Shown here: positions 42,368 to 64,000 of the stretch, piece by piece
Numbering within the stretch: the first letter of the stretch is position 1
How the letters are laid out: the number at the start of each line of letters is the position of its first letter
DNA from: a virus
Strand: one strand, 5' to 3'
DNA: 64,000 nt
IMG/VR virus record: IMGVR_UViG_3300014202_001529
Notes under the pieces: model-generated
Databases searched by the model: none
Seen by the model: the letters and a program-made list of their open reading frames with translations, nothing else
Told to the model about the DNA's origin: nothing
Translations under genes and position numbers: made by a program

Positions 42368-43909
42368 TTAAAAAGGAATATCCTCATCATCATTCATCCG
42401 GCTTGGCCGCGTAATGATGTGCATTGCTGCCGGCGGTTTTGGCATTTCATCCTGCTGCTGCGGGTTCTCAACCACTTCTGCTTCCAGCATGCCGTTATAA
42501 TCGTCGAATTCGGTATACTGGCCTTTGAAGGTCAGCTTGGTTTTGTCCAAAGCTCCATCACGGTTTTTGGCCGTGTGAATTTCCACCACTCCAACCAGGG
42601 AATTGCCTTCTTCATCCTCCAATATGTGGTAATATTCAGGCCGGTAGATGAAATCCACGCGGTTTGCGTCCTGCTCCACACTTCCGCTCTCGCGAAGATC
42701 AGAAAGCTGCGGTATTTTGGCGCCGCCTCGCGTTTCTACTGCCCTCGACAGTTGTGCCAACGCTTCCACCGGCAAATCCAGTTCTTTTGCCGTGGCTTTC
42801 AAGCACCGGCTAATTTCCCCAACCACCTGCTCTCGAATCGGAGATGGGTTGGAAACCGTCATCAATTGCAGGTAGTCTACGTAGCAATACTCTATATCGT
42901 AGAGCATTTTCATCAACCTTGCCTTAATCCGGAATTCCGATATTGGCAATGATGGCGTGTCGTCAATATAGATCGGCAGTTGAGACAGCCGATCTATAGC
43001 TGCTAAATAATCAGACAGTCGGTAGCCCGGTCCCGAATCGCCATCCAGCCGGAATGCGCCGTTTTTGATGACCGCTAAGGGAATTTGCCCTTCTATTGAC
43101 GTTGCCCGGTCTATCAATTGCGCTTCCGTCATCTCCAGGGAAAATATGCCCACTGCCATACCCATTTTTGCTTGTCGCAGCGCTTTGGACAGCATAAACC
43201 CAGTTTTGCCCATGCCGGGTCGCCCGGCTGTGATGATGAGGTCGCCTTTTGCGGCACATCCGGTTCTCATGTCCAGGTCGCGAAAACCTGACGGCACACC
43301 GGTTGTGACCGGCTCGCCGTTATGGCGTTTCTGCGCCACTTCCATCACCGCCTTTGCCCTTTCCATCACAGCGCCGGAAAAGCTGGAGACCTCTTTGCCG
43401 TACAATCCACGCTGAATCTGTGCGATGGAGGTGGCGTACTCTTCCAGCATTTGTATCGGGTCTTCCACGTCCTCAAATGCTTTCCGGATGCCCACCGTGG
43501 ATACTTCGATCATTGCCCGGTTGATCCATTTTTGCAGGACAATGCGGGCATGGTATTCGATGTTGGCGGCAGATCCTACCCGATTGGTCAGTTCTGCCAG
43601 GTAGGCCGGGCCGCCAACTGCTTCCAGTTTGTCTGCTTTCCGCAATTCTTCCATCACGGTGAGCAGGTCCACCGGCAGTGTTTTGTCAAAAAGCGCTTTG
43701 ATAGCTCCAAAAATGGCTTTGTGGGCCTCGACATAGAAGTGTTCTGGTCGTAGAAAGCCTTCTATGATGCGATATGCTCCCTTGTCGAGCATCAACGCAC
43801 CAAGCACGGCTTCTTCCAGCGGCACGGCTTGTGGCTGCACCTTGCCGAACACGTAGTTGGAAAGGTGGGCTGCCTCCTGCGGTATCGGTTTATGCCTCTG
43901 CATTGTCAT
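42368..43909 (-). CDS. dnaB: Replicative DNA helicase DnaB
   Basis: PPQA-like PQAVPLEEAVLGALM, FYVEAHKAIF, AGRPGMGKT, FSLEM, YVDYLQLM, LAQLSRAVETR, SDLRESGSVEQDA, AKNRDG; C-tail DEDIPF. Confidence 0.97.
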   Translation of the reverse strand: MTMQRHKPIPQEAAHLSNYVFGKVQPQAVPLEEAVLGALMLDKGAYRIIEGFLRPEHFYVEAHKAIFGAIKALFDKTLPVDLLTVMEELRKADKLEAVGGPAYLAELTNRVGSAANIEYHARIVLQKWINRAMIEVSTVGIRKAFEDVEDPIQMLEEYATSIAQIQRGLYGKEVSSFSGAVMERAKAVMEVAQKRHNGEPVTTGVPSGFRDLDMRTGCAAKGDLIITAGRPGMGKTGFMLSKALRQAKMGMAVGIFSLEMTEAQLIDRATSIEGQIPLAVIKNGAFRLDGDSGPGYRLSDYLAAIDRLSQLPIYIDDTPSLPISEFRIKARLMKMLYDIEYCYVDYLQLMTVSNPSPIREQVVGEISRCLKATAKELDLPVEALAQLSRAVETRGGAKIPQLSDLRESGSVEQDANRVDFIYRPEYYHILEDEEGNSLVGVVEIHTAKNRDGALDKTKLTFKGQYTEFDDYNGMLEAEVVENPQQQDEMPKPPAAMHIITRPSRMNDDEDIPF

Positions 43910-50265: not shown

Positions 50266-52308
50266 TCATGCTCGTAATGCAACTTTTTCCGGTAACCGGG
50301 TCAGCTCCGCCACAAGCGCTTCCGCCCAGGCTTTCACAAAAGCCGGAACAACCGAGTTCCCAATGAATTTTTTCTGATCGGCCTGGGTGCCTTTCAGAAC
50401 GTAAGAAGCCGGGAATCCTTGGATGATCTTCATTTCTTGCACCAGCAACATCCGCATTTTGATGTCGCTGATCTGGTATGCCGCCATGAAGATTTTTATC
50501 TTCCTCATGGCCGGTGAATCCTCCGGATACACTATGATGGCGATGCCTTGCTGATCACCTTCAGCAGTGTTAATGCTAATCAGGTAGGGTGGACGTTTGT
50601 CTGTTCTCGCGATAAGCGTGAACAATGGTTCATTTATACTGCCACCGGCGCAGGTATACTGCGGGTTCAGCACGTAATGGTACTTCCTGTTGGCCGTGAT
50701 GGTTGGCAGTGGCGCTTCAATAGAAGATCCAACATTGTCGAAATTCGTGCTCAGGATAAAAGGCTTGCACGTGACCAGGTTGGTTTTTGGCACGGTGAGC
50801 AATGCGCCCATTGGTCCGTCCACATCCACCAATTGCCCGCCGCCGCTGAAATCCCGGGCGATGAACACCAGGCCAAGTTTGTTTTGGGTAGTGATTGTTG
50901 GGCAACAATCGTCTAACTCCTGCATATTCAAGCCTTTGCCGTAGTATTTCATCAAAACCACGCCGATCCTGTCCTTAGTGGTCAGGGTACTGCATGGGCC
51001 ATTGATCTCCACAAGGTTCTCGCCGGTGCCGTGATACTTCAGCATGATCACTCCAGTCCGTTGCTGCACGGTTAGGGTAGGGCAGGGTTGATTAGGGCTT
51101 GAACCAGGGCTTACCTTCCCGTTTTCATTTGTGGAATTCCATTTGGTTATAAACACAGACGCATGACTATCCGTTGTCGTGAAAGCACCAGTTGGTCCAT
51201 AAATGCTTATACACTTACTTGCAGGGGCGCCGGAGTAGTATTTCATCAGGAAGGAATCATCGCCATCTGCGACAAACTTAACCAGCCCTGCATAAATCCT
51301 TTCGAGCGTTTTTTCAACGAGCGGTTTGTCCCGGTCAAAAATGCTTTGCCCTTCGTTACTCAAGTCTAAGCATTCCTTCACCGCTTTCCATGGGTGCAGC
51401 TTTGTTCCGAATAGCATTTGCTGGCCGTTGCCCGCTGCCTTTTGTGGGTTTTTCGCGTGCGTAGCTTCCGGCCAGATCATTGGAAGCCCTGGCTTGGCAA
51501 AAATGCCAAACAGACGCCGGCGGGACGTGTATGCACCATAATTGGCGGAGTCCTGGATGGTCCAGTCATCCGTATAGCCATAACTATTTATGTGCTGCCG
51601 CCACTTTAACCAGCTCCGGCCTTTCGTCAAGCTTTCCGGAATCCAGTGTGGCTCCAACCGGTTGGTTTTCTTGTTTATTACTAAGGGGCAATAATCATTT
51701 CCGCCCTTAGTAACTACTTTCGGAATCATTGGCCCCCAGGCCATAAACTCCCGTACGTTTTCGATTTGGACATAATCCGGATCAAGTACTTCAATATAGG
51801 GGTAAAGGTGTTCTGCTAATGTACGGCTATCTGCATCCCGACTTTTTCCCCCTTTAGCCTGGGAAAAGTTGGTACACTCAAGCGAAGCCCACAGTATCAC
51901 CTTCGCTTTTGGGTGCAGGGCCCGATAAATATCTACCAACCGCTTCAACCGGACCATTTCCGGGCTAAGGAAATGGATGCCGTGATAGCGGAATCCGTAC
52001 ATCCGCGTAATGTCCTCGTTAAAGTGGACAACATCCGGATGGTTTGCCCAATGCGATGCAATTGCCTTCGCATCGTGGTTGACGCAGGCTATTATTTTGC
52101 AGACCTTTCGGCCCAGCTGGTTCATGGCTTCGGCAAAGCCTTGCGTGACTCCACCGGCACCGCAAAAGAGGTCAATTATTAACAGTTGGGTATTGTCGTC
52201 CTGAATGTAGAGCGGAGATTGCTTCGGTCTTTTAAAGACCGTATTTTCAAGCCTTTGCGCCGTTTCTAAGGATAAGTATTCCATATCTGTGCTGTTTTGT
52301 AAGCTCAA
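50266..52308 (-). CDS. C5-cytosine DNA methyltransferase with expanded repetitive target-recognition region
   Basis: IDLFCGAGG, ASLECTNFS, IENVREF, GAYTSRRRLF, IGNSVVP; repeated PxxT(L/I)TxxxR/K units. Confidence 0.92.
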   Translation of the reverse strand: MSLQNSTDMEYLSLETAQRLENTVFKRPKQSPLYIQDDNTQLLIIDLFCGAGGVTQGFAEAMNQLGRKVCKIIACVNHDAKAIASHWANHPDVVHFNEDITRMYGFRYHGIHFLSPEMVRLKRLVDIYRALHPKAKVILWASLECTNFSQAKGGKSRDADSRTLAEHLYPYIEVLDPDYVQIENVREFMAWGPMIPKVVTKGGNDYCPLVINKKTNRLEPHWIPESLTKGRSWLKWRQHINSYGYTDDWTIQDSANYGAYTSRRRLFGIFAKPGLPMIWPEATHAKNPQKAAGNGQQMLFGTKLHPWKAVKECLDLSNEGQSIFDRDKPLVEKTLERIYAGLVKFVADGDDSFLMKYYSGAPASKCISIYGPTGAFTTTDSHASVFITKWNSTNENGKVSPGSSPNQPCPTLTVQQRTGVIMLKYHGTGENLVEINGPCSTLTTKDRIGVVLMKYYGKGLNMQELDDCCPTITTQNKLGLVFIARDFSGGGQLVDVDGPMGALLTVPKTNLVTCKPFILSTNFDNVGSSIEAPLPTITANRKYHYVLNPQYTCAGGSINEPLFTLIARTDKRPPYLISINTAEGDQQGIAIIVYPEDSPAMRKIKIFMAAYQISDIKMRMLLVQEMKIIQGFPASYVLKGTQADQKKFIGNSVVPAFVKAWAEALVAELTRLPEKVALRA

Positions 52309-52344: not shown

Positions 52345-53364
52345 CTAAAAAGAACCAGAAGATTCGCCGCTGAATGCGCCCTGGGGCCGTTCCCAGCTGT
52401 CCACAAAGATGGGGGAGGAGAAGTCCGACATGGCTTCGTGCTGCCAGCGTTTCAGGTTTGCATCGGTGAGAAAGGATGTGCCGCGTTGCGCCCGCGAAAA
52501 AATATCTTCTTTGGCATACAGTGTGTGCTGCAACTGCACCTCCATGCGGCCAATTTCCAGCAACTTTGTGGGCGCCAGTTCGGCAATGGCTGCCCAGTTG
52601 TTGGGGCTGGAGAAGATGCACAGTTGGCAGGAGCATCGAGACCAGCCTAATTCGTAGCAGGGATGGGGTTGGATTCTGTTTTTGGCGATAATGTCCCACA
52701 CCTGCCGCTCCGACCAGTTAATGATCGGACGCCATTGCAGCACCTGGCGGGATTGGCTCGTTGCTCGGTATGGCTCCAGCTCTTCGTATTTGGAGCGGGC
52801 TGCACTTTCTTCCCGGCGCTCGCCGGTGCAAACCACGAAGCGGCCAGTCTTATAATCCGGGTGATTAGTGATCACTCTACTAAGCACATCAATTTTTACC
52901 ACGGCGCTGCACCAGCGCGTGCGCAGGTCCGCAGTCACAGCTGGGAACTTCATGCGCGTGCTGTTTCCGGCACGACTTTCTAAGCGGGTGTGCTTTTTGC
53001 CTGCGGTTTCCTGGTACAGGACATCCTGCAAGCCCTCGTTTTTCCGGAACATTTCCCTCCGGATGCCACCATCGCGGTAAGAAAACAGGATCGGTATGTC
53101 GAGCGCATCCGCAAAAGCCTGGCAATAGGAGGGTGTGCATGGCCAGTCGAACAGGTTTTGCCCATCACCATCCACATCGTGGTGATGCAGGGTGATTCTT
53201 TCCTTAGTAACTCCCAGGGAAAGCAGGTGCAAAACCATTGCAACGCTGTCTTTTCCCCCGGAAAAAGCGACCAAAAACCGCGTTTCAGTGTTGTCAATCT
53301 CCTTAGTAATCCCTGCAGGGATTGCGGATGTTGTCCACGGAGCAACCACAGGTAGGTGCAGCAT
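52345..53364 (-). CDS. PAPS-reductase-family (PP-loop) protein
   Basis: VAFSGGKDS, RWCSAVVK, GERREES.AR, GWSRCSCQLC. Confidence 0.85.
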   Translation of the reverse strand: MLHLPVVAPWTTSAIPAGITKEIDNTETRFLVAFSGGKDSVAMVLHLLSLGVTKERITLHHHDVDGDGQNLFDWPCTPSYCQAFADALDIPILFSYRDGGIRREMFRKNEGLQDVLYQETAGKKHTRLESRAGNSTRMKFPAVTADLRTRWCSAVVKIDVLSRVITNHPDYKTGRFVVCTGERREESAARSKYEELEPYRATSQSRQVLQWRPIINWSERQVWDIIAKNRIQPHPCYELGWSRCSCQLCIFSSPNNWAAIAELAPTKLLEIGRMEVQLQHTLYAKEDIFSRAQRGTSFLTDANLKRWQHEAMSDFSSPIFVDSWERPQGAFSGESSGSF

Positions 53365-53366
53365 GG

Positions 53367-55007
53367 CTATAGGCTTTTACGATACCGAAGAAAATCGTTC
53401 CAGGTCGTGTCTTCTTCCTCAAAAGTTGCCTTTTGGATGGCATGGAAGATGCCGGTGCATTTGTCGGCGAAGTCTTTCCTGACCTTAGTTGTGGTTGCAT
53501 CCGAAACGCCAATTTTCTGGAGTTTTCGGTTCAGTTTGCCCAAGGCTTCCTGGAAGATGGCCGTGGCCTGGAAGTAGCCCGATTTTTTCAGCGTGAACAT
53601 CACGTCGCGAAAAAGATCCTCCGCGTATGCTTCCGATTGCTGCCAGCGGAAAAGATGGGTATTCTTGTCGGCGCGTAGTTTTCTCCGTTTGTCTTCTGCC
53701 GGCAGCCACTTATCCACCACATCGCGCAGGCCGTTTTTCATACCGTCATCCAGCCGCAGGTAGGTGAGTGGCTCATAGATGTTAAATTGTTTCTTCGCCA
53801 TCCAAAGATGCGCGATATAGATAGCCCGGCTGACCCTGATGGCCGCTTGCTGGATGTGCTCATCGTTGGTTTTTGCGCCAACGACCTCAATGCGGCGCAG
53901 GTGCAGCTCCAGCATCCCGCGCACTTGCCCGGCAATGCTGTCAAGGTAGTCCGCAGGCAGGTGGCCATACAGCATTTCGACCAGTTGGTGGTACAAAATA
54001 AGCGTCCAGTAGCCCATCGTGGTCCCGTCCGCAGTCAGGTGCGCGGAGATGCGCTCGCTGCGCCGCATTTCCTGCTGGTAGCGCTGCAAACTAAAGGTTT
54101 GGCGGTCTTTCACTGGCACAACTACGCCGGATTTCGGCGATTTTTTCGCGATTCCGGCGATTTTTTCGCCCGCTGCCGGCGCGCCGCCGCCAAAATCGTT
54201 CTTGGTTGCGTCGTTTCGGTTTTTTTCATCGGAGGCGATAGCCTCCGTTAATCTTTCATGTGGCGAAGCCACTCGTTCTTCACCCTGTTTTTCAGGGTTA
54301 TTCTTTTCTATTTTTTTAGTTTCTTTTTTCTCTGTACATACTTGCTGTAATTTTGAAATTTGGAGGGTTTGTAACCGCGATTTTCCGTTCTGCTCCAGCA
54401 CTCCGGCCAGGAGCAGTTTTTGCTTGAAAACCTTGCGGCTAATCCACAGGGTGAAGTCGCCTCTTCCGTTGTCTGCCATCTCCACAATGATGGTTCTGTG
54501 CCCATCTTCCTCGATGACTTCCCGGCGCTGGCGTGAGGTGTTCGCCTTAGAGATGATAATGTCGGCTTCTTGCAGCTGGTTTAGGTGCCGCCAAAGGGTT
54601 GCCAGTCCGTTTTTCTTGCCCAAGAGCCTCCTTAGTTCGCCGCGATTAGTAGTGACTGGTATTGAGTCTGCATCGCCGTAGTACATCAGGTACTTTTGTC
54701 GAGCTGCCAGGTCGCCGCCAACGGCTGCCCGGCGTGTCTCCTCTGCCTGCGTCATGGCCAACCAGATGAGTTTTTGCCCCAGGGCTGTTTGTGGCGCCCT
54801 TAGTTTTCCGGCAACGTATTCGCGAGTGCGACCCAAGCTGTCTGTTATGGTTGTGGATGCAGGTAGGCTTTCGTTGTATCGCTGGATCAATTCTTCCAGC
54901 AAAACGTGCTGTGAGTGGCCTATATCTATGGTCTCCCAGCATGAAAGATTCAAAAAATCTTGTGAATTATCTTGCTTAGTAGCAAGAGATTGGTTAAATT
55001 TGCCCAT
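53367..55007 (-). CDS. Putative replication initiator (wHTH) protein
   Basis: TNRGELRRLLG...LATLWRHLNQLQEADII wHTH-like segment and low-complexity linker; follows the excisionase. Family assignment uncertain. Confidence 0.45.
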   Translation of the reverse strand: MGKFNQSLATKQDNSQDFLNLSCWETIDIGHSQHVLLEELIQRYNESLPASTTITDSLGRTREYVAGKLRAPQTALGQKLIWLAMTQAEETRRAAVGGDLAARQKYLMYYGDADSIPVTTNRGELRRLLGKKNGLATLWRHLNQLQEADIIISKANTSRQRREVIEEDGHRTIIVEMADNGRGDFTLWISRKVFKQKLLLAGVLEQNGKSRLQTLQISKLQQVCTEKKETKKIEKNNPEKQGEERVASPHERLTEAIASDEKNRNDATKNDFGGGAPAAGEKIAGIAKKSPKSGVVVPVKDRQTFSLQRYQQEMRRSERISAHLTADGTTMGYWTLILYHQLVEMLYGHLPADYLDSIAGQVRGMLELHLRRIEVVGAKTNDEHIQQAAIRVSRAIYIAHLWMAKKQFNIYEPLTYLRLDDGMKNGLRDVVDKWLPAEDKRRKLRADKNTHLFRWQQSEAYAEDLFRDVMFTLKKSGYFQATAIFQEALGKLNRKLQKIGVSDATTTKVRKDFADKCTGIFHAIQKATFEEEDTTWNDFLRYRKSL

Positions 55008-55072
55008 TCTTAGTAGCGTTAAAGTCAAGAATCAGAATAGAGCATTCCGGCCAGGGTGCTCTGTTTTTTTTT
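54971..55072 (+). ncRNA. Candidate ~60-nt antisense RNA to the replication-gene translation start
   Basis: Plus-strand TTG-N20-TAAATTTG promoter (54972-55002); AGAGCA/TGCTCT hairpin with a T9 run (55039-55072). Confidence 0.45.
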
Positions 55073-55231
55073 GACACCATCGGGAGGGGAATCCTTCTTA
55101 GTAAGAATTCATCCCCAGCCCGGTTCTTGGTGTGCGTCGAAACATCCAGGGGTTTCGCTCCCCACACCGGAAGGAAATCCGGTGGCATTCTGTTATGTGG
55201 ATGCCTATAACTCATGCAAATATACTTTAAA

Positions 55232-55246
55232 TTGCGTTAATCGCAA
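55232..55246. promoter_or_regulatory. Operator palindrome TTGCGTTAATCGCAA
   Basis: 7 bp from a minus-strand TATATTTG box (55217-55224). Confidence 0.8.
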
Positions 55247-55263
55247 TTTTTGTTTAAAAAAAA

Positions 55264-55605
55264 TTATTTCCCTCCGTAGTACTTGCCTACGAAACGTTTG
55301 ATTTCCTTGCCGGAGATTCGGTAGTGTGTTCCTGGAATGGGAACGATAAGCCCTTGTTTGATCCACCTTAACACCGTGGTGTCAGACACGGGCTTCCCTT
55401 TTTTGGTAGAAGGCGCAATTAATTGCGCAACCTGATCTGTAGTATAAAGCATATTGTCTTGCGTAGTAAGCATTTCCCGTTGTATCGCAGCGAGGGCTTC
55501 AACGTTTTCTCTTACTAACCGCATTTCTTTGATTAGAGCCTCAAATAGAGCATCTTGGTTAGTCGGTGTTGTTTGTCTGTCTGGTAAATTTGTCAATTTG
55601 CTCAT
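55264..55605 (-). CDS. Excisionase-like HTH_17/MerR-type protein
   Basis: LYTTDQVAQLI...SDTTVLRWIKQGLI...YRISGKEIKRF. Confidence 0.8.
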   Translation of the reverse strand: MSKLTNLPDRQTTPTNQDALFEALIKEMRLVRENVEALAAIQREMLTTQDNMLYTTDQVAQLIAPSTKKGKPVSDTTVLRWIKQGLIVPIPGTHYRISGKEIKRFVGKYYGGK

Positions 55606-55619
55606 TGTGTGTGTAGTTT

Positions 55620-55964
55620 TTATAGAGTGATTAGCGTGATGAATTTTTCCAATTGCTGGATGGCTGTGCTTACAGCCATATCAATTGTTTCGTAGCTCTT
55701 TCCTAAATCACTTGGCTGAAATACCAATGGTGCCATCCCGACTTCAGGGATGATGTACCATTCTTCCACTTTAGTGGAATCAACTTCTTCTTCTTCTGGA
55801 TCGTACTTGGCAATTAAAAACAGTAGAACACCATTGGTGCTTTCAATCAACTTGTCTTGTTGTCCTGTTTTGTCGTTTTTTTTGCTACGAATTACTACAT
55901 TTGCCGTTGTTGCCATCATAGCCCATATAGGTTTTGTACACGCGAAGCAGGAATGCTCGCGCAC
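55620..55964 (-). CDS. Hypothetical protein
   Basis: 114-aa ORF. Confidence 0.55.
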   Translation of the reverse strand: MREHSCFACTKPIWAMMATTANVVIRSKKNDKTGQQDKLIESTNGVLLFLIAKYDPEEEEVDSTKVEEWYIIPEVGMAPLVFQPSDLGKSYETIDMAVSTAIQQLEKFITLITL

Positions 55965-56033
55965 TGTTCAATTAATCTTTTTGTGGAGGGGGTGGTGCGA
56001 ATTTATACAATTCCAACTTCTAAATCCATAAAA

Positions 56034-56429
56034 ATGGACGAGAATCAACAAAACTATGGAAAAGAATTTGAGACTTGGCATATCCGGCTCAAAAAAATCA
56101 TGGATACCCTGGAATTAAACCAAACGTCGTTTGCCGCGAAAATCGGCGTAGGAGCTACAACCGTTAACAACCTGCTAAGCCGCCCAGTTAAAGCCCAGAT
56201 GGGCTTTTTTATCAGTTTGAAGCAAGCCTATCCTTATATCAATCTTAATTATCTGTTTGTAAACCAAGGCGATATGTTTGTGGGTGGAATTACAGAAGAA
56301 AACGTGAAGGTCTACCTTGCAAAGGAACCTTCTGTGGAGTACAATAATGCCTTAGTTGCGATGCATGAAGAGCTAACAGCGCTGAAAACGATCACAAGCG
56401 AATTGTTAGAAGAGTATCGAAAAAAATAA
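56034..56429 (+). CDS. CI-like XRE repressor without S24 peptidase domain
   Basis: LELNQTSFAAKIGVGATTVNNLL HTH; YPYINLNYLF..QGDMF typical of Bacteroidota phage repressors. Confidence 0.8.
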   Translation: MDENQQNYGKEFETWHIRLKKIMDTLELNQTSFAAKIGVGATTVNNLLSRPVKAQMGFFISLKQAYPYINLNYLFVNQGDMFVGGITEENVKVYLAKEPSVEYNNALVAMHEELTALKTITSELLEEYRKK

Positions 56430-56506
56430 TGCACGTTGATTGCTTACGGTTAAACAAATCCAAATGTTTTATTTATTCATAAACAACAAGTTGCTTACGT
56501 GGGTCG

Positions 56507-56524
56507 GATTCCTGGCGGGGCTAC
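56507..56524 (+). other. Putative attP core resembling a tRNA 3' end
   Basis: GATTCCTGGCGGGGCTAC reads as T-loop end, T-stem and acceptor strand; ~120 bp upstream of int; flanking TTGCTTACG repeats. Confidence 0.55.
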
Positions 56525-56642
56525 TTTTTAAACCTTTTCTCGTTTTTATTTCTATTCAATTCGTACATTTACAGTGCTTTGTACTACTTTGTAGTTTTTC
56601 TAAGCTTGATTTCTATCGAGAACAGACAAAAATGCACACGGA

Positions 56643-57818
56643 ATGTTTACGTATCCAAGCATAAAAATCGTTTTGTTAAAAAACGACGTAAACAAAAAAA
56701 ATGAATGCCCGATCTACCTTCAGTTTATTCACCAGCGCAGGACGTTCCGGCTTTCGCTTAGAAAATTTGTTCCTCTTGCATCCTGGAATGGAGTGCATCC
56801 AAAATATTTGAAAGACAAGGGACCCGATAAGCACCCAAATGCCCGGCAACTAAACATCTTGCTGGCCGGGATGCAGAACAAAGCCCAGGAGATCATCCTG
56901 GCATACGAAATTGAAAATAAGGCCATTACCTGGGAGCTTTTCCAACAAGAAATGAACCCGGGCGCAGCGAAGCCGCAAACGTTCTACGACTTTCACATGT
57001 TATATGTGGAAGAGCAGCGGAAAGAGGGCACCAAGGTATCAACGCTGGAAACCTATAGTTCCAAGCTAAAAAAGCTCCGAGAGTTTGCTCCGGAGCTGAA
57101 CATCGAGGATGTGACGGCAGAATTTGCCAGAGAGTATATTTACTGGATGAAGACGGTAAAGGGAAATGTCCCAAACACCATCTACAAATCCTTCCAATAC
57201 CTTACTGCTGTTTGCAGGCTTGCGGTCCGGATGAAAGCATTGAAGGAGTATCCACTCGAAGGAGTGGCTGTCCGTAAGGAAGTTAGAGATCCAAGCAGGT
57301 TGAATCAGGCAGAAGTGGATAAGTTGATGGCGTTATACCGGTCGGGAGTGTTGCCGGATAGCCGGCAGAACGTTCTGGGGCAATTCCTGTTTGCCTGTCA
57401 CACTGGTCTGGCATTTGGAGACATCCAGGTATTGGATTATGCAGACATTCAGGTTCATACCGATGGAACGTTGTACGTTGAAAAAGACCGCAACAAAACG
57501 GACATTCGGTTTATCTGTCCGCTTTTACCTGAAGCTTTGGAATTGATTGACTATCCTAACGAAGGGAAAGTTTTCCGTGGAATATCGAATAAAAACACGA
57601 ATGACTACATACAGGATACCTGTAAATTCGTTGGCATTCAAAGGCATGTCCGGTTTCATACGGCACGGCATACTTTCGGAACGATTGCCATCAACAAAGG
57701 CATACGACTGGAGGTTGTGCAGAAAATGATGGGGCACGCTAAAGCTTCCATGACTTCGCACTATGCGAAGTTAAATACTTCCACAATAATTGAAGAAGGT
57801 CTAAAACCGTCAAAATGA
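56643..57818 (+). CDS. int: Tyrosine recombinase / integrase (Bacteroidota IntDOT-like)
   Basis: N-terminal arm-binding CPIYLQF...R; SAM-like middle; TGLAFGD (Arg-I replaced), RNKT, FHTARHTF, MMGH, HYA. Confidence 0.95.
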   Translation: MFTYPSIKIVLLKNDVNKKNECPIYLQFIHQRRTFRLSLRKFVPLASWNGVHPKYLKDKGPDKHPNARQLNILLAGMQNKAQEIILAYEIENKAITWELFQQEMNPGAAKPQTFYDFHMLYVEEQRKEGTKVSTLETYSSKLKKLREFAPELNIEDVTAEFAREYIYWMKTVKGNVPNTIYKSFQYLTAVCRLAVRMKALKEYPLEGVAVRKEVRDPSRLNQAEVDKLMALYRSGVLPDSRQNVLGQFLFACHTGLAFGDIQVLDYADIQVHTDGTLYVEKDRNKTDIRFICPLLPEALELIDYPNEGKVFRGISNKNTNDYIQDTCKFVGIQRHVRFHTARHTFGTIAINKGIRLEVVQKMMGHAKASMTSHYAKLNTSTIIEEGLKPSK

Positions 57819-61281: not shown

Positions 61282-63075
61282 CTACGCCGCCTGGGCTTTG
61301 ATCTCATCCGCTACACGGCTGACGGCTGCCGCGTAGCTTTCGCCCGCCCTCCTTTTGGACTTTACTTCTTCGTGGAACTTCCGGATTGCCTTCGGATTCT
61401 GTTCCAATTTTTTGATGAGGTCGCCGCATTCGTGGTATGAGGTTTTCCATTTTTCCTTCTGCGTTTGGGAGCAACTACCTTCCAGGGAGCAGTGCAGCAG
61501 TTCTTTGTACGTTTTCAGGCAGGCCATGTACATTTCATCCCCTTTCGTGGTGTAGATCCTTTTCATTTCAGGCTCTTTGATCAGGATTTGGTAGCTGCCC
61601 GTTTTGGGCCTGTCTACTTTATCCAGGCTGAATGAATCTACGCAAAGCCGGTAGTATTTGCGACCGCCCATCCATGCTTTAATCCCAGCCATGCCTGCAT
61701 AGTCCGCTACCTCTACAATAACGTCGTGCTGGCCTTCCTTGCCCTTCACGCGCATAATTTTCGTGATCTGGCGGCTGCTTTTGCTTTCGCGCCAGTCGGT
61801 CGCTTCTTTAAGGAACCAGGTTACTACCTTGTTCACTCGGCGACCTGTTTCTGCATCATCCAGCGTGCAGACCGAGCGCTTTTGGGCATTTTCTTCGGGT
61901 GCTTTGGCTGCGGGTTCCTTTTCTGATGCTTTTTTGAATCTATTTTTCAAGGACTGCAAAACGTCAGGCCCCCTGACGCCTTTAGGCATCATTCCCATCA
62001 GTGTTTCTTCTAAAACTGAAATCCCCCGCGAAGTCCTGTCCGAACTTTCGTATTCCTCAAATTGCTTAGCAACCGCAAATGCAATTTCTTCTGCATCTTT
62101 GTATTTGAGTTCGGCCATTTTAGCCTCAATTTCTTGAAGCAGAAATTCAGCGTAATCATCTTTTAAACGCTTTCGTTTTTGGATTTCTGGACCACTTTTC
62201 GCTGGATCGGGTTTGTGCTCGTCTGCAATGTGCTGCTTCCATGTAGTTCCTAAAATGCACTTTTTATTGAAGCTGGCCGGGATCATGATGAACACCAGGT
62301 AGCCGCCATCGTCGAAGATCAGGTGCTCGCCTTTTTTGGCAGTCACGGTGATGCTGCCATCGCCGGTGCCTTTCAGGCGCACCAGGGTGTCTTCTTTCAC
62401 CTCCAGCGAATAGTGCTGGCAGTGGAGCACGATGGGCTTCAATGTGCCCGTGTCCGTTTTCTTTTTCCAGCTATATGCCGGTTTTTCAGCAGCGGGAGCG
62501 GTTTTCGGCTCTGGTTTCGGCTCTGGTTTGGGTTCTGGTTTTGCTGCTTTCGGTTTTTCTGCTCCGGCAGGGATGTGCTTCATAATGTAGGCCGCTACCC
62601 AATCGGATACAAAGGATCTATGCAAAATATCCTTATCCCTTACCGTTTCCCGCATTTTGGCGATCAACTCATCGTAGTCTTTTTGTGGAAGACCCAGGAT
62701 TTTATCCCGGGTTTGACCCGGGAAAGCTGCATCGAGCAGCGCATACACTTCTGCTTTTGTTGTGCCTGGTTCCGGAGGTGTCGCTTTTGGCGGTTCTGCC
62801 TTTTTTGCTTTTGGCGGTTCTTCCTTTTTTGCTTTAGGTGGTTGTGTGTTTTTTGCTTTAGGCGTCGTCGCTTTTTTTACCTTTTTTTCAGGTGCAGGCG
62901 CAGCAGCCGTAGCGGCTGAACCGGATGGCTTTTCTTCCATTGCTGCAAGCTGAGCTTTAGCCGTGGCAATGGACTTTTCCAGGCTTTCCCGTGCTGCGCC
63001 TTGAATGGCAGGATTACTCAACCCCTTTTCCATTTTGGCTATTTTGTCTTGCAATGTTTGCTTATCGTTCATCAC
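61282..63075 (-). CDS. 597-aa Lys/Pro/Ala-rich protein following the helicase across the circle junction
   Basis: PPKAKKxE and KPEP repeats, Cys-containing C-terminus; starts just after the helicase stop (63101 = 326). Confidence 0.75.
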   Translation of the reverse strand: MMNDKQTLQDKIAKMEKGLSNPAIQGAARESLEKSIATAKAQLAAMEEKPSGSAATAAAPAPEKKVKKATTPKAKNTQPPKAKKEEPPKAKKAEPPKATPPEPGTTKAEVYALLDAAFPGQTRDKILGLPQKDYDELIAKMRETVRDKDILHRSFVSDWVAAYIMKHIPAGAEKPKAAKPEPKPEPKPEPKTAPAAEKPAYSWKKKTDTGTLKPIVLHCQHYSLEVKEDTLVRLKGTGDGSITVTAKKGEHLIFDDGGYLVFIMIPASFNKKCILGTTWKQHIADEHKPDPAKSGPEIQKRKRLKDDYAEFLLQEIEAKMAELKYKDAEEIAFAVAKQFEEYESSDRTSRGISVLEETLMGMMPKGVRGPDVLQSLKNRFKKASEKEPAAKAPEENAQKRSVCTLDDAETGRRVNKVVTWFLKEATDWRESKSSRQITKIMRVKGKEGQHDVIVEVADYAGMAGIKAWMGGRKYYRLCVDSFSLDKVDRPKTGSYQILIKEPEMKRIYTTKGDEMYMACLKTYKELLHCSLEGSCSQTQKEKWKTSYHECGDLIKKLEQNPKAIRKFHEEVKSKRRAGESYAAAVSRVADEIKAQAA

Positions 63076-64000
63076 AGATGTATTTTAAGTTTTTTAATAT
63101 TTATGCAAATTCCATTGCCGTTTCCAATGCCTCAATCGCACTCGCCAAAGAAGCCTTATCGTCCCCTTCAGCAAATTCCATTGCCAGTTGCAGCGAACTG
63201 ATTGCGGCCTGCAAATCGTTGTCTGCTGCTTCCTCTTCTTCCTCTTTCGCCTGTGCTTTTTTGATTTGTGAGAACGGGACTGGTTCCCAATTAAAATCCA
63301 GCTCTACACCGTTGCCCATTCGCCCGCGAGCGGCGTTTATTTCCTTCATCGAAAGATAACCCCATTCCGCGTTCTGGTCGTCACCTCCCAGGATGGCAAA
63401 GCCAAACAGTTTGTCTTTTCCGTCCCATTCCGCGATGTACCAATCCGAATTGTCAATAAAAAAGTGCGCGTAGATGATTTTTTCCGCTGCCGGCACGCTT
63501 TCCGTAGCGTACAGTGCTGGAATGGATTCTACCTGCACTTTGAGTGGCGCCAGTACGTTGTCTGCATAGCCTGGTTCTGCATTTTCCAGAATGATTCTGG
63601 AAACAACCCGCTGTTGTATTTTGGGCATGAACCGGGAAAGCTTTTCCCCAAAGGTGAACGGCTCCGCGATTTGCGCCTGAACCTTTGTGTCTACTTCCAC
63701 CACTTCGCCGGATTTGATTTCCGTCACCCGCCCGTAGATGTCGCAGGTGTGGATGCCGTCCAGACAGTCGAGCAAGTAGTTGAGTCTTGAGAACTCCGTG
63801 ACGCGCTGTGAAACGTTTCGGCTGCTCGCTCTTTCTTTTTCTTTTTCAGCCTCAACAATTGCCAGGCGACGCTGAAATTCTTCGGGAGATAATAAGATAG
63901 AAACGTCATCTGACAGTTTATTTAGCCGGATTTGGTATTCTTCCTTAACATGCGTAAAATCATCAAAAACGGTGAGTTTGTGTCGAGACAGGATACGTTC
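62776..64000. repeat. Copy 2 of the 1225-bp overlap (window wraps the circle)
   Basis: Matches 1-1225 and ends at ...ggatacgttc as base 1225 does. Confidence 0.97.

Follow-up and report, generated by a model that had tools for sequence, protein, structure and literature searches.

A conserved tRNA-like leader RNA and a putative antisense RNA at the start of an early gene in a Saprospiraceae virus

Control by countertranscripts is textbook knowledge for plasmids of Proteobacteria and Firmicutes, and in R1 (CopA/CopT), ColE1 (RNA I), pT181 (RNAI) and pSK41 (RNAI) a cis-antisense RNA acts on the leader of the replication gene and exerts negative dosage control. Temperate phages use similar antisense RNAs without a plasmid state, namely short transcripts over the start sites of early genes such as sar of P22, OOP of lambda and C4 of P1/P7, the last of which is excised from a leader by RNase P via a tRNA-like fold. 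To our knowledge, few examples of countertranscripts exist in Bacteroidota, whose promoters and Shine-Dalgarno-free translation differ. Here we analysed a 256-base-pair (bp) gap in the virus record IMGVR_UViG_3300014202_001529 of IMG/VR (64,000 nucleotides (nt), in the following called the window), which separates a gene for a 113-amino-acid (aa) protein of the HTH_17/excisionase family from the first gene after it, encoding a 546-aa protein. Two RNAs would be encoded in this gap: a sense leader, which comparison with relatives identifies as a real and conserved RNA of two structured domains, and a short antisense RNA predicted from conserved signals.

The closest known design is RNAII of pMV158/pLS1, which acts together with CopG in a dual control of repB. 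The sequence of RNAII complements the stretch ahead of an atypical start site, and first contact is made by its 5' tail (PMC5703833). The viral locus would share with it a short countertranscript (48 nt there, ~66 nt here) whose promoter lies where the target gene begins, the complementarity to the region just upstream of a start site of the non-Shine-Dalgarno kind, the single-stranded 5' tail followed by one terminator hairpin, and a gene for a small DNA-binding protein upstream, which in pMV158 is the repressor gene (PMC5703833). Unlike in pMV158, however, the target is no recognised Rep protein, the element is a temperate virus with a host among the Bacteroidota, a tRNA-like domain forms part of the ~205-nt target leader, and the upstream protein is of the HTH_17 rather than the ribbon-helix-helix type; on the viral side the likeness is one of predicted sequence signals. 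The original prediction had taken CopA/RNA I copy-number control as its model, which fits less well than RNAII, as we found neither a conserved (tap-like) leader peptide as in R1 nor a sign of a primer RNA as in ColE1. Likewise, we saw no conserved choice between a pre-emptor and a terminator of the pT181 or pIP501 kind, and the predicted antisense RNA overlaps the start region itself, unlike that of pSK41 with its site ~100 nt upstream. The sequence evidence makes an antisense RNA the best explanation, and the framing as plasmid copy control an analogy only. To the phage RNAs sar, OOP and C4 the locus shows no similarity in sequence or in Rfam. C4, which is listed as an RNase P substrate (PMC4919922), finds its targets further downstream within its own transcript, whereas the antisense RNA proposed here would be separately promoted.

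The 546-aa protein is rare, with eight close homologs among 5.8 billion clusters searched and 43 representatives of its family in an exhaustive profile search. A genome search, from which the more distant family members were drawn, found it in 20 of 401 sampled Saprospiraceae genomes and in none of 400 other Bacteroidota. No homolog was detected by tblastn in 72,556 plasmids or 50,697 phage records, and protein-alignment scans of viral and metagenome contig collections gave no match. At the DNA level the window was compared with two close relatives, the loci L001 (75% protein identity) and L002 (59%), which both come from metagenome-assembled genomes of Saprospiraceae. These three loci make up the antisense comparison, with the close homologs P0004-P0006, P0008 and P0009 outside it. 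The sense leader (~205 nt) is predicted to start near 55212, behind a sigma-A promoter, and to reach the ATG at 55007. The locus is laid out as follows (window coordinates):

55264-55605, minus strand: gene of the 113-aa protein, an HTH_17/excisionase-family DNA-binding protein according to library matches, upstream of the leader
55231-55247, both strands: palindrome ATTGCG-ATTAA-CGCAAT, an operator-like or promoter-family element that overlies the -33 region of the sense promoter
55217-55224, minus strand: -7 box TATATTTG of the sense promoter, just downstream of the palindrome, with a predicted transcript start at ~55212
55140-55206, minus strand: leader domain 1, a diverged tRNA-like minihelix (from folds, the 16-leader alignment A7 and covariation of P3)
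55206-55199 paired with 55147-55140, minus strand: P1, acceptor-like stem of 8 bp
55184-55165, minus strand: P2, CACCGG/CCGGTG
55163-55149, minus strand: P3, T-arm-like hairpin GGGG-AGCGAAA-CCCC, stacked directly on the 3' strand of P1
55134-55139, minus strand: linker CGACGC, the window version of a conserved N-CGA-R motif after the acceptor-like stem
55074-55133, minus strand: leader domain 2, the long hairpin P4-P7 with ACACC/GGTGT, an AAGAA internal loop, CGGG/CCCG, GGGGA/TCCCC and the apical TTCTTA-C-TAAGAA
55039-55062, both strands: P8, hairpin of AGAGCA, a 12-nt loop and TGCTCT, a strong stem of the sense leader 31 nt before the ATG and the candidate terminator stem of the antisense RNA
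55008-55038, minus strand: translation start region of the sense mRNA, unstructured in fold predictions and complementary to the 5' tail of the predicted antisense RNA
53367-55007, minus strand: 546-aa target gene with ATG at 55007, encoding a winged-helix N-domain, a Lys/Glu-rich linker and a helical C-domain

Along the leader, P1 (which closes P2 and P3) is followed by the linker, P4-P7, an A-run, P8, about 30-31 open nt and the ATG. The leaders of the window, L001 and L002 independently fold into the same helices, and compensatory double changes occur in P1, P2, P4, P6 (those of P4 and P6 between the window and L002) and in all of P8, while the junction bases CACAnAAnnGAAU, CGA and CAAGAA are invariant. 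The sense strand folds equally well or better than the antisense strand (-46.1 versus -34.5 kcal/mol in L001, -54.4 versus -46.0 kcal/mol in L002), and many G-U pairs are possible on the sense RNA only. The structured leader of ~200 nt put forward in the original prediction is thereby borne out, both in the shared fold and in its covariation, which for the T-arm and closing stem extends over 16 leaders; the promoter, terminator, operator-linked promoter and stems that it listed all lie where it had placed them. Its reading of the stem GGGGA..TTCTTA-C-TAAGAA..TCCCC (55116-55085, minus strand) has to be corrected at the loop base, which is C on the RNA strand and G on the plus strand, and the main feature of the leader, the tRNA-like minihelix, had been overlooked.

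No counterpart of the leader emerged from RNA libraries: cmscan with Rfam 15 returned no match in 54000-57000 with E values up to 1, and a search of twelve related loci gave one sub-threshold chance match only. A covariance model built from the three close sequences (R1) recovered its own three members alone among 31 loci and about 160 Saprospiraceae genomes, its weak matches being terminator hairpins or coding sequence, and a scan for the pattern of the RNA core found nothing in viral contigs and two chance matches in GC-rich coding DNA in metagenomes. Nor is a leader peptide apparent, as the sole open reading frame of the leader (55215-54994, 73 aa) begins upstream of the predicted transcript start and is lost in L001 and L002. 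Two copies of the 9-mer TACTAAGAA lie on the RNA strand, one at 55103-55095 in the 3' strand of the apical stem P7 and one at 55015-55007, where it ends on the A of the start codon; through this repeat the start region could pair with the 5' strand of P7 instead, an alternative that is not seen in L001 or L002.

The minihelix is carried by sixteen Saprospiraceae leaders of the 546-aa protein family, which makes the leader a family-wide feature. In the upstream regions of distant homologs we find an acceptor-like stem, a variable middle part of 9-52 nt, a T-arm and then N-CGA-R. The T-arm, for example GGAG-UUCGAUU-CUCC in one distant leader, is stacked directly on the 3' strand of the stem, with a gap of 0-2 nt between the T-stem and the 3' strand of P1, and CGA(G/C/A) follows the stem in 12 of 15 leaders. 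The closing stem has 6-8 bp in all 16 leaders and is built from 11 distinct sequences, a length of 7 bp being reached by 8% of cross-locus controls. In the alignment A7 the T-arm helix is 90% paired, with four of its five pairs changed on both sides; it scores above all slid controls, and of 500 shuffles none equals it by three of the five measures used and no more than six do so by the other two. The T-loops of the close group are AGCGAAA in the window, AGCGAUU in L001 and AUCGUUA in L002, which keep C-G (and A58 in two of them), and those of the distant leaders are UUCGAUU, UUCAAUU or UUCGACU. The window thus holds a diverged form that departs from the consensus U-U-C-R-A, and recognition by tRNA enzymes is less certain there than in the distant leaders, which counts against a processing role at this locus.

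By analogy with the t-elements of plant mitochondria and the mascRNA of MALAT1, the minihelix would likely mark the leader for cleavage by RNase P or RNase Z. Accounts of both describe tRNA-like processing signals in messages, whose minihelices are taken to be substrates of RNase P and/or RNase Z (PMC1920247; PMC4919922). As in these cases, an acceptor/T-arm minihelix lies inside a longer transcript next to an mRNA end; the differences are that the element here is from a bacterial virus, that the T-loop in the window is degenerate and that a conserved CGA replaces CCA after the stem.

Since tRNA-like T-arm sequences are typical of integrase attachment (att) sites and the region adjoins a possible initiator gene, the structures might alternatively act in DNA, as an origin, a single-strand initiation site or a recombination site. 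We consider this very improbable: the G-U pairs and the asymmetry in folding energy favour one transcribed strand, the full acceptor-like stem covaries and shows no match to a host tRNA, and ARAGORN found no tRNA in the window or at any copy of the leader. Four extra matches in the genome G303 turned out to be the module itself and further copies of it. The idea that the T-arms are att copies of host tRNAs was likewise rejected, as the other G303 matches are more copies of the module and none is a tRNA gene. The G303 chromosome holds at least six copies of leader plus family gene (L008, L023, L030, L042, L043 and L044), and in L023 a plain hairpin is all that is left of the T-arm. An HTH_17-like gene precedes the leader in L002, L008 and L023 as it does in the window, in the last two loci immediately upstream of the module.

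The leader might also be a cis-regulator that senses a ligand in the manner of a riboswitch, or is autoregulated by the 546-aa protein, with P8 deciding between termination and read-through and an antisense RNA of secondary importance. Its multi-helix architecture with invariant junction bases, its strict link to one protein family across at least 16 loci and the position of P8 between the fold and the ATG would all suit such a sensor. Against it stand the lack of a conserved antiterminator pairing (the one riboswitch-type candidate in the window, GGUGU/GCACC, is not kept in L001), the weak sense U-tract after P8 in two of the three loci and the fact that minihelices of the tRNA-like kind are not known to form ligand pockets, so that we hold sensing to be unlikely and prefer a structured leader joined by a start-region antisense RNA.

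The antisense RNA is predicted from the following elements, in addition to P8:

54972-54974, plus strand: candidate -33 TTG of the antisense promoter, with a 20-nt spacer to the -7 box (weak evidence)
54995-55002, plus strand: -7 box TAAATTTG of the antisense promoter, at the same position in all three close loci
55007-55072, plus strand: predicted antisense RNA of ~65-66 nt, deduced from box, hairpin and T-run
55064-55072, plus strand: T9 run, end of the antisense RNA (the A9 spacer on the sense RNA)

At the sequence level, TAAATTTG fits the -7 box of Bacteroidota sigma-A. The sigma-A box of Flavobacterium covers -12 to -5 (PMC9723704), and with this spacing the antisense RNA would begin at ~55007 and measure ~66 nt. 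The short antisense RNA upstream of the ATG, as originally predicted, is supported by the conserved box and terminator, with its 5' end moved from 55009 to ~55007. The start codon reads CAT on the plus strand (55005-55007), and TAAATTTG ends 2 nt before it; the TAnnTTTG box ends 2 nt before CAT in L001 as well (TAGCTTTG) and 3 nt before it in L002 (TATTTTTG). The N-terminal peptides are unlike in the three loci (MGKFNQ, MYKANA and MSQKYE), and the box of L002 occupies a different codon phase. That its position is kept in spite of this points to selection on the DNA and not on the protein. A hairpin followed by a T-run on the antisense strand is likewise present in all three loci (T9 in the window, T7 in L001, T11 in L002). 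In L002 the hairpin is preserved although the sequence of P8 is entirely different, and in the window P8 and the T9 run were also called by a terminator scan. All three predicted antisense RNAs fold as a free 5' tail of 20-25 nt and a terminator hairpin. The box and the A-run are missing in L005, L007 and the distant loci, relatives in which the leader of this closest subgroup is missing too, and among the loci seen the antisense module appears confined to the subgroup. The conserved promoter box and terminator are, on these sequence grounds, best read as signals for a short RNA made in cis and antisense to the translation start region. A 106-aa open reading frame on the antisense strand (54754-55074) was rejected as a gene, as neither its length nor its end point is conserved.

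Several observations weigh against this reading. Neither signal is enriched in the window, where TAnnTTTG occurs 51 times against 55.6 expected and T9 runs six times against 9.1 expected; as both are singly at chance frequency, the case rests on their conjunction and conservation. Read on the sense strand, the box (CAAAnnTA) shares bases with AAA codons for Lys at residues 3-4, and such codons are favoured behind a start codon; the -33 TTG, which in the window and L001 overlaps conserved Lys-Gln codons, is absent in L002. As the antisense module occurs in three related loci alone, its conservation could partly reflect shared descent. Most family leaders carry a strong hairpin 10-35 nt before the ATG, and its presence in distant members without the antisense box suggests that the primary role of this hairpin may be in the sense RNA.

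Two of these points, the chance frequencies and the hairpin of the distant members, would suit a locus without any functional antisense RNA. In it, P8 and the A and U tracts at its sides would terminate transcription in both directions or insulate, or else attenuate or stabilise the sense leader, and the box would be a by-product of A-rich codons behind the start codon. In L002 the hairpin indeed forms a perfect bidirectional terminator (A11, stem, U5). We regard this alternative as somewhat unlikely, since the box stays within 1 nt of its position in all three loci despite the phase shift and the different peptides, and since the antisense T-run is strong in all three loci whereas the sense U-tract after P8 is strong in L002 alone and weak in the window and L001.

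If a structured sense leader and a start-region antisense RNA are both made, the following sequence of events can be proposed. The sense leader would run from the sigma-A promoter to the ATG, and its minihelix would offer a handle for host RNase P or RNase Z. A cut at this point would free the message from whatever is transcribed upstream and give it a defined 5' end, and P8 could then protect or attenuate the message. From the opposite side, the plus-strand sigma-A promoter would fire at ~55007, and transcription would stop at P8 and T9 to give the ~66-nt RNA, whose single-stranded 5' tail of 20-30 nt would pair with the translation start region. Messages of Bacteroidota are described as being without Shine-Dalgarno sites and as having their initiation tuned by mRNA structure (PMC6847099). 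As initiation relies on a start region that is A-rich and left open, duplex formation at this site should block it, and might also open the message to double-strand-specific RNases. Transcriptional interference could come on top if both promoters, which converge from a distance of ~205 bp, fire. As a net result, the dosage of an early gene, maybe that for the replication initiator of the virus, would be under negative control. Taken as a whole, this combination of structured leader, start-region antisense RNA and dosage control is the best explanation that the sequence comparisons offer, and we consider it slightly favoured over its negation.

The locus could go further and represent a plasmid-type copy-number sensor, in the style of CopA or RNA I, of an episomal prophage with the 546-aa protein as its Rep initiator. 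Bases 62776-64000 of the window are an exact copy of bases 1-1225, a wrap-around of 1,225 nt which indicates that the source is circular or terminally redundant, with 62,775 bp. The circle would suit an episome, but virion or replicative DNA fits it equally well. The layout, with a small DNA-binding protein gene, a leader with countertranscript and the target gene, is as in pMV158. In L002 (3129-4661), however, the element adjoins a tRNA-Lys(UUU) gene and a Bacteroidota-type tyrosine integrase and is therefore probably integrated, and the L001 copy lies within a 93-kb contig of chromosomal type. No conserved iterons were found: the candidate inside the 546-aa gene is a single 2 x 20-nt tandem repeat in perfect register, GATTYCGGCGATTTTTTCGC (54130-54169, in the linker-coding part), whose unit length is not divisible by three and which, being absent in L001 and L002, probably reflects a recent duplication rather than iterons.

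The protein itself speaks to the same question. That the target is a replication gene, as the original prediction had it, is unproven in this form, as the 546-aa protein of the window has no match in Pfam, PHROG or NCBIfam and the matches of its N-domain are not decisive. None of 32 family members reaches the Pfam threshold, single members attaining E values of 0.005-0.01 to RP-C and HTH_36 below it, and a profile search of the PDB gave nothing below E 0.06. The full-length structural model is poor (predicted local distance difference test (pLDDT) 64) and matches helical bundles only. The N-domain (residues 1-205; pLDDT 87) is modelled as a winged helix, for which the RepA_N initiator 4pta (Z 6.8), DnaD, primosome DnaB and ORC are among the top structural matches; yet these scores (Z 5.5-7.1) are at background and tied with those of the CRP and Fur regulators. 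A protein atlas gave RepA_N and HTH_36 as leads (score 0.92). The position of the gene, chiefly its synteny with a DnaB-type helicase downstream on the same strand in both the window and L001, supports a replication role, and we see the chances that the protein is an initiator as roughly balanced. A copy-number sensor, in turn, would profit from the winged helix, the atlas leads and the helicase, and suffers from the lack of a Rep family match by sequence, of any homolog in the plasmid and phage records searched and of structural scores above background. We find it improbable, and retain start-region antisense control as the preferred reading. The genes concerned, together with the integrase, are:

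42368-43909, minus strand: DnaB-type replicative helicase, in the same leftward early region as the 546-aa gene
7021-8568 of L001, plus strand: DnaB-type helicase of that locus
56643-57818, plus strand: integrase

A more far-reaching proposal joins these elements. The locus would belong to an undescribed leader RNA family common to mobile elements of Saprospiraceae and to this virus, in which a cut by host RNase P or RNase Z at a tRNA-derived minihelix releases a small tRNA-like RNA and sets the 5' end of the message of a new type of winged-helix replication initiator, and in which the separately promoted antisense RNA, an addition of the virus lineage, completes a two-layer dosage control by which the virus could persist as a low-copy episome. 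We regard this full combination as doubtful.

The sense promoter of the window belongs to a wider pattern. The core of its palindrome, TTGCG-N5-CGCAA, has seven exact copies in the window (34575, 37287, 46721, 46830, 52322, 55232 and 61192), against ~0.06 expected from base counting, and five of the seven are followed, 7-8 nt downstream, by a minus-strand TAnnTTTG box. From the sequence, these palindromes look like a virus-specific family of promoters or operators heading successive leftward operons. In L001, TAAATTTG lies at the same distance from P1 as the sense box of the window; L002 has no sense box for its leader, which probably shares a transcript with the HTH_17 gene. Directly after the 546-aa gene follows a gene for a PAPS-reductase-like protein (PHROG 424; 52345-53364, minus strand), and the same run includes a 680-aa C5 cytosine methylase (50266-52308, minus strand).

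A conserved countertranscript in a Saprospiraceae virus would give a testable model for this type of control in the Bacteroidota. The more unusual feature of the locus is the tRNA-like leader family, which is absent from Rfam, and if the 546-aa protein is an initiator, this leader RNA marks a new replication module.

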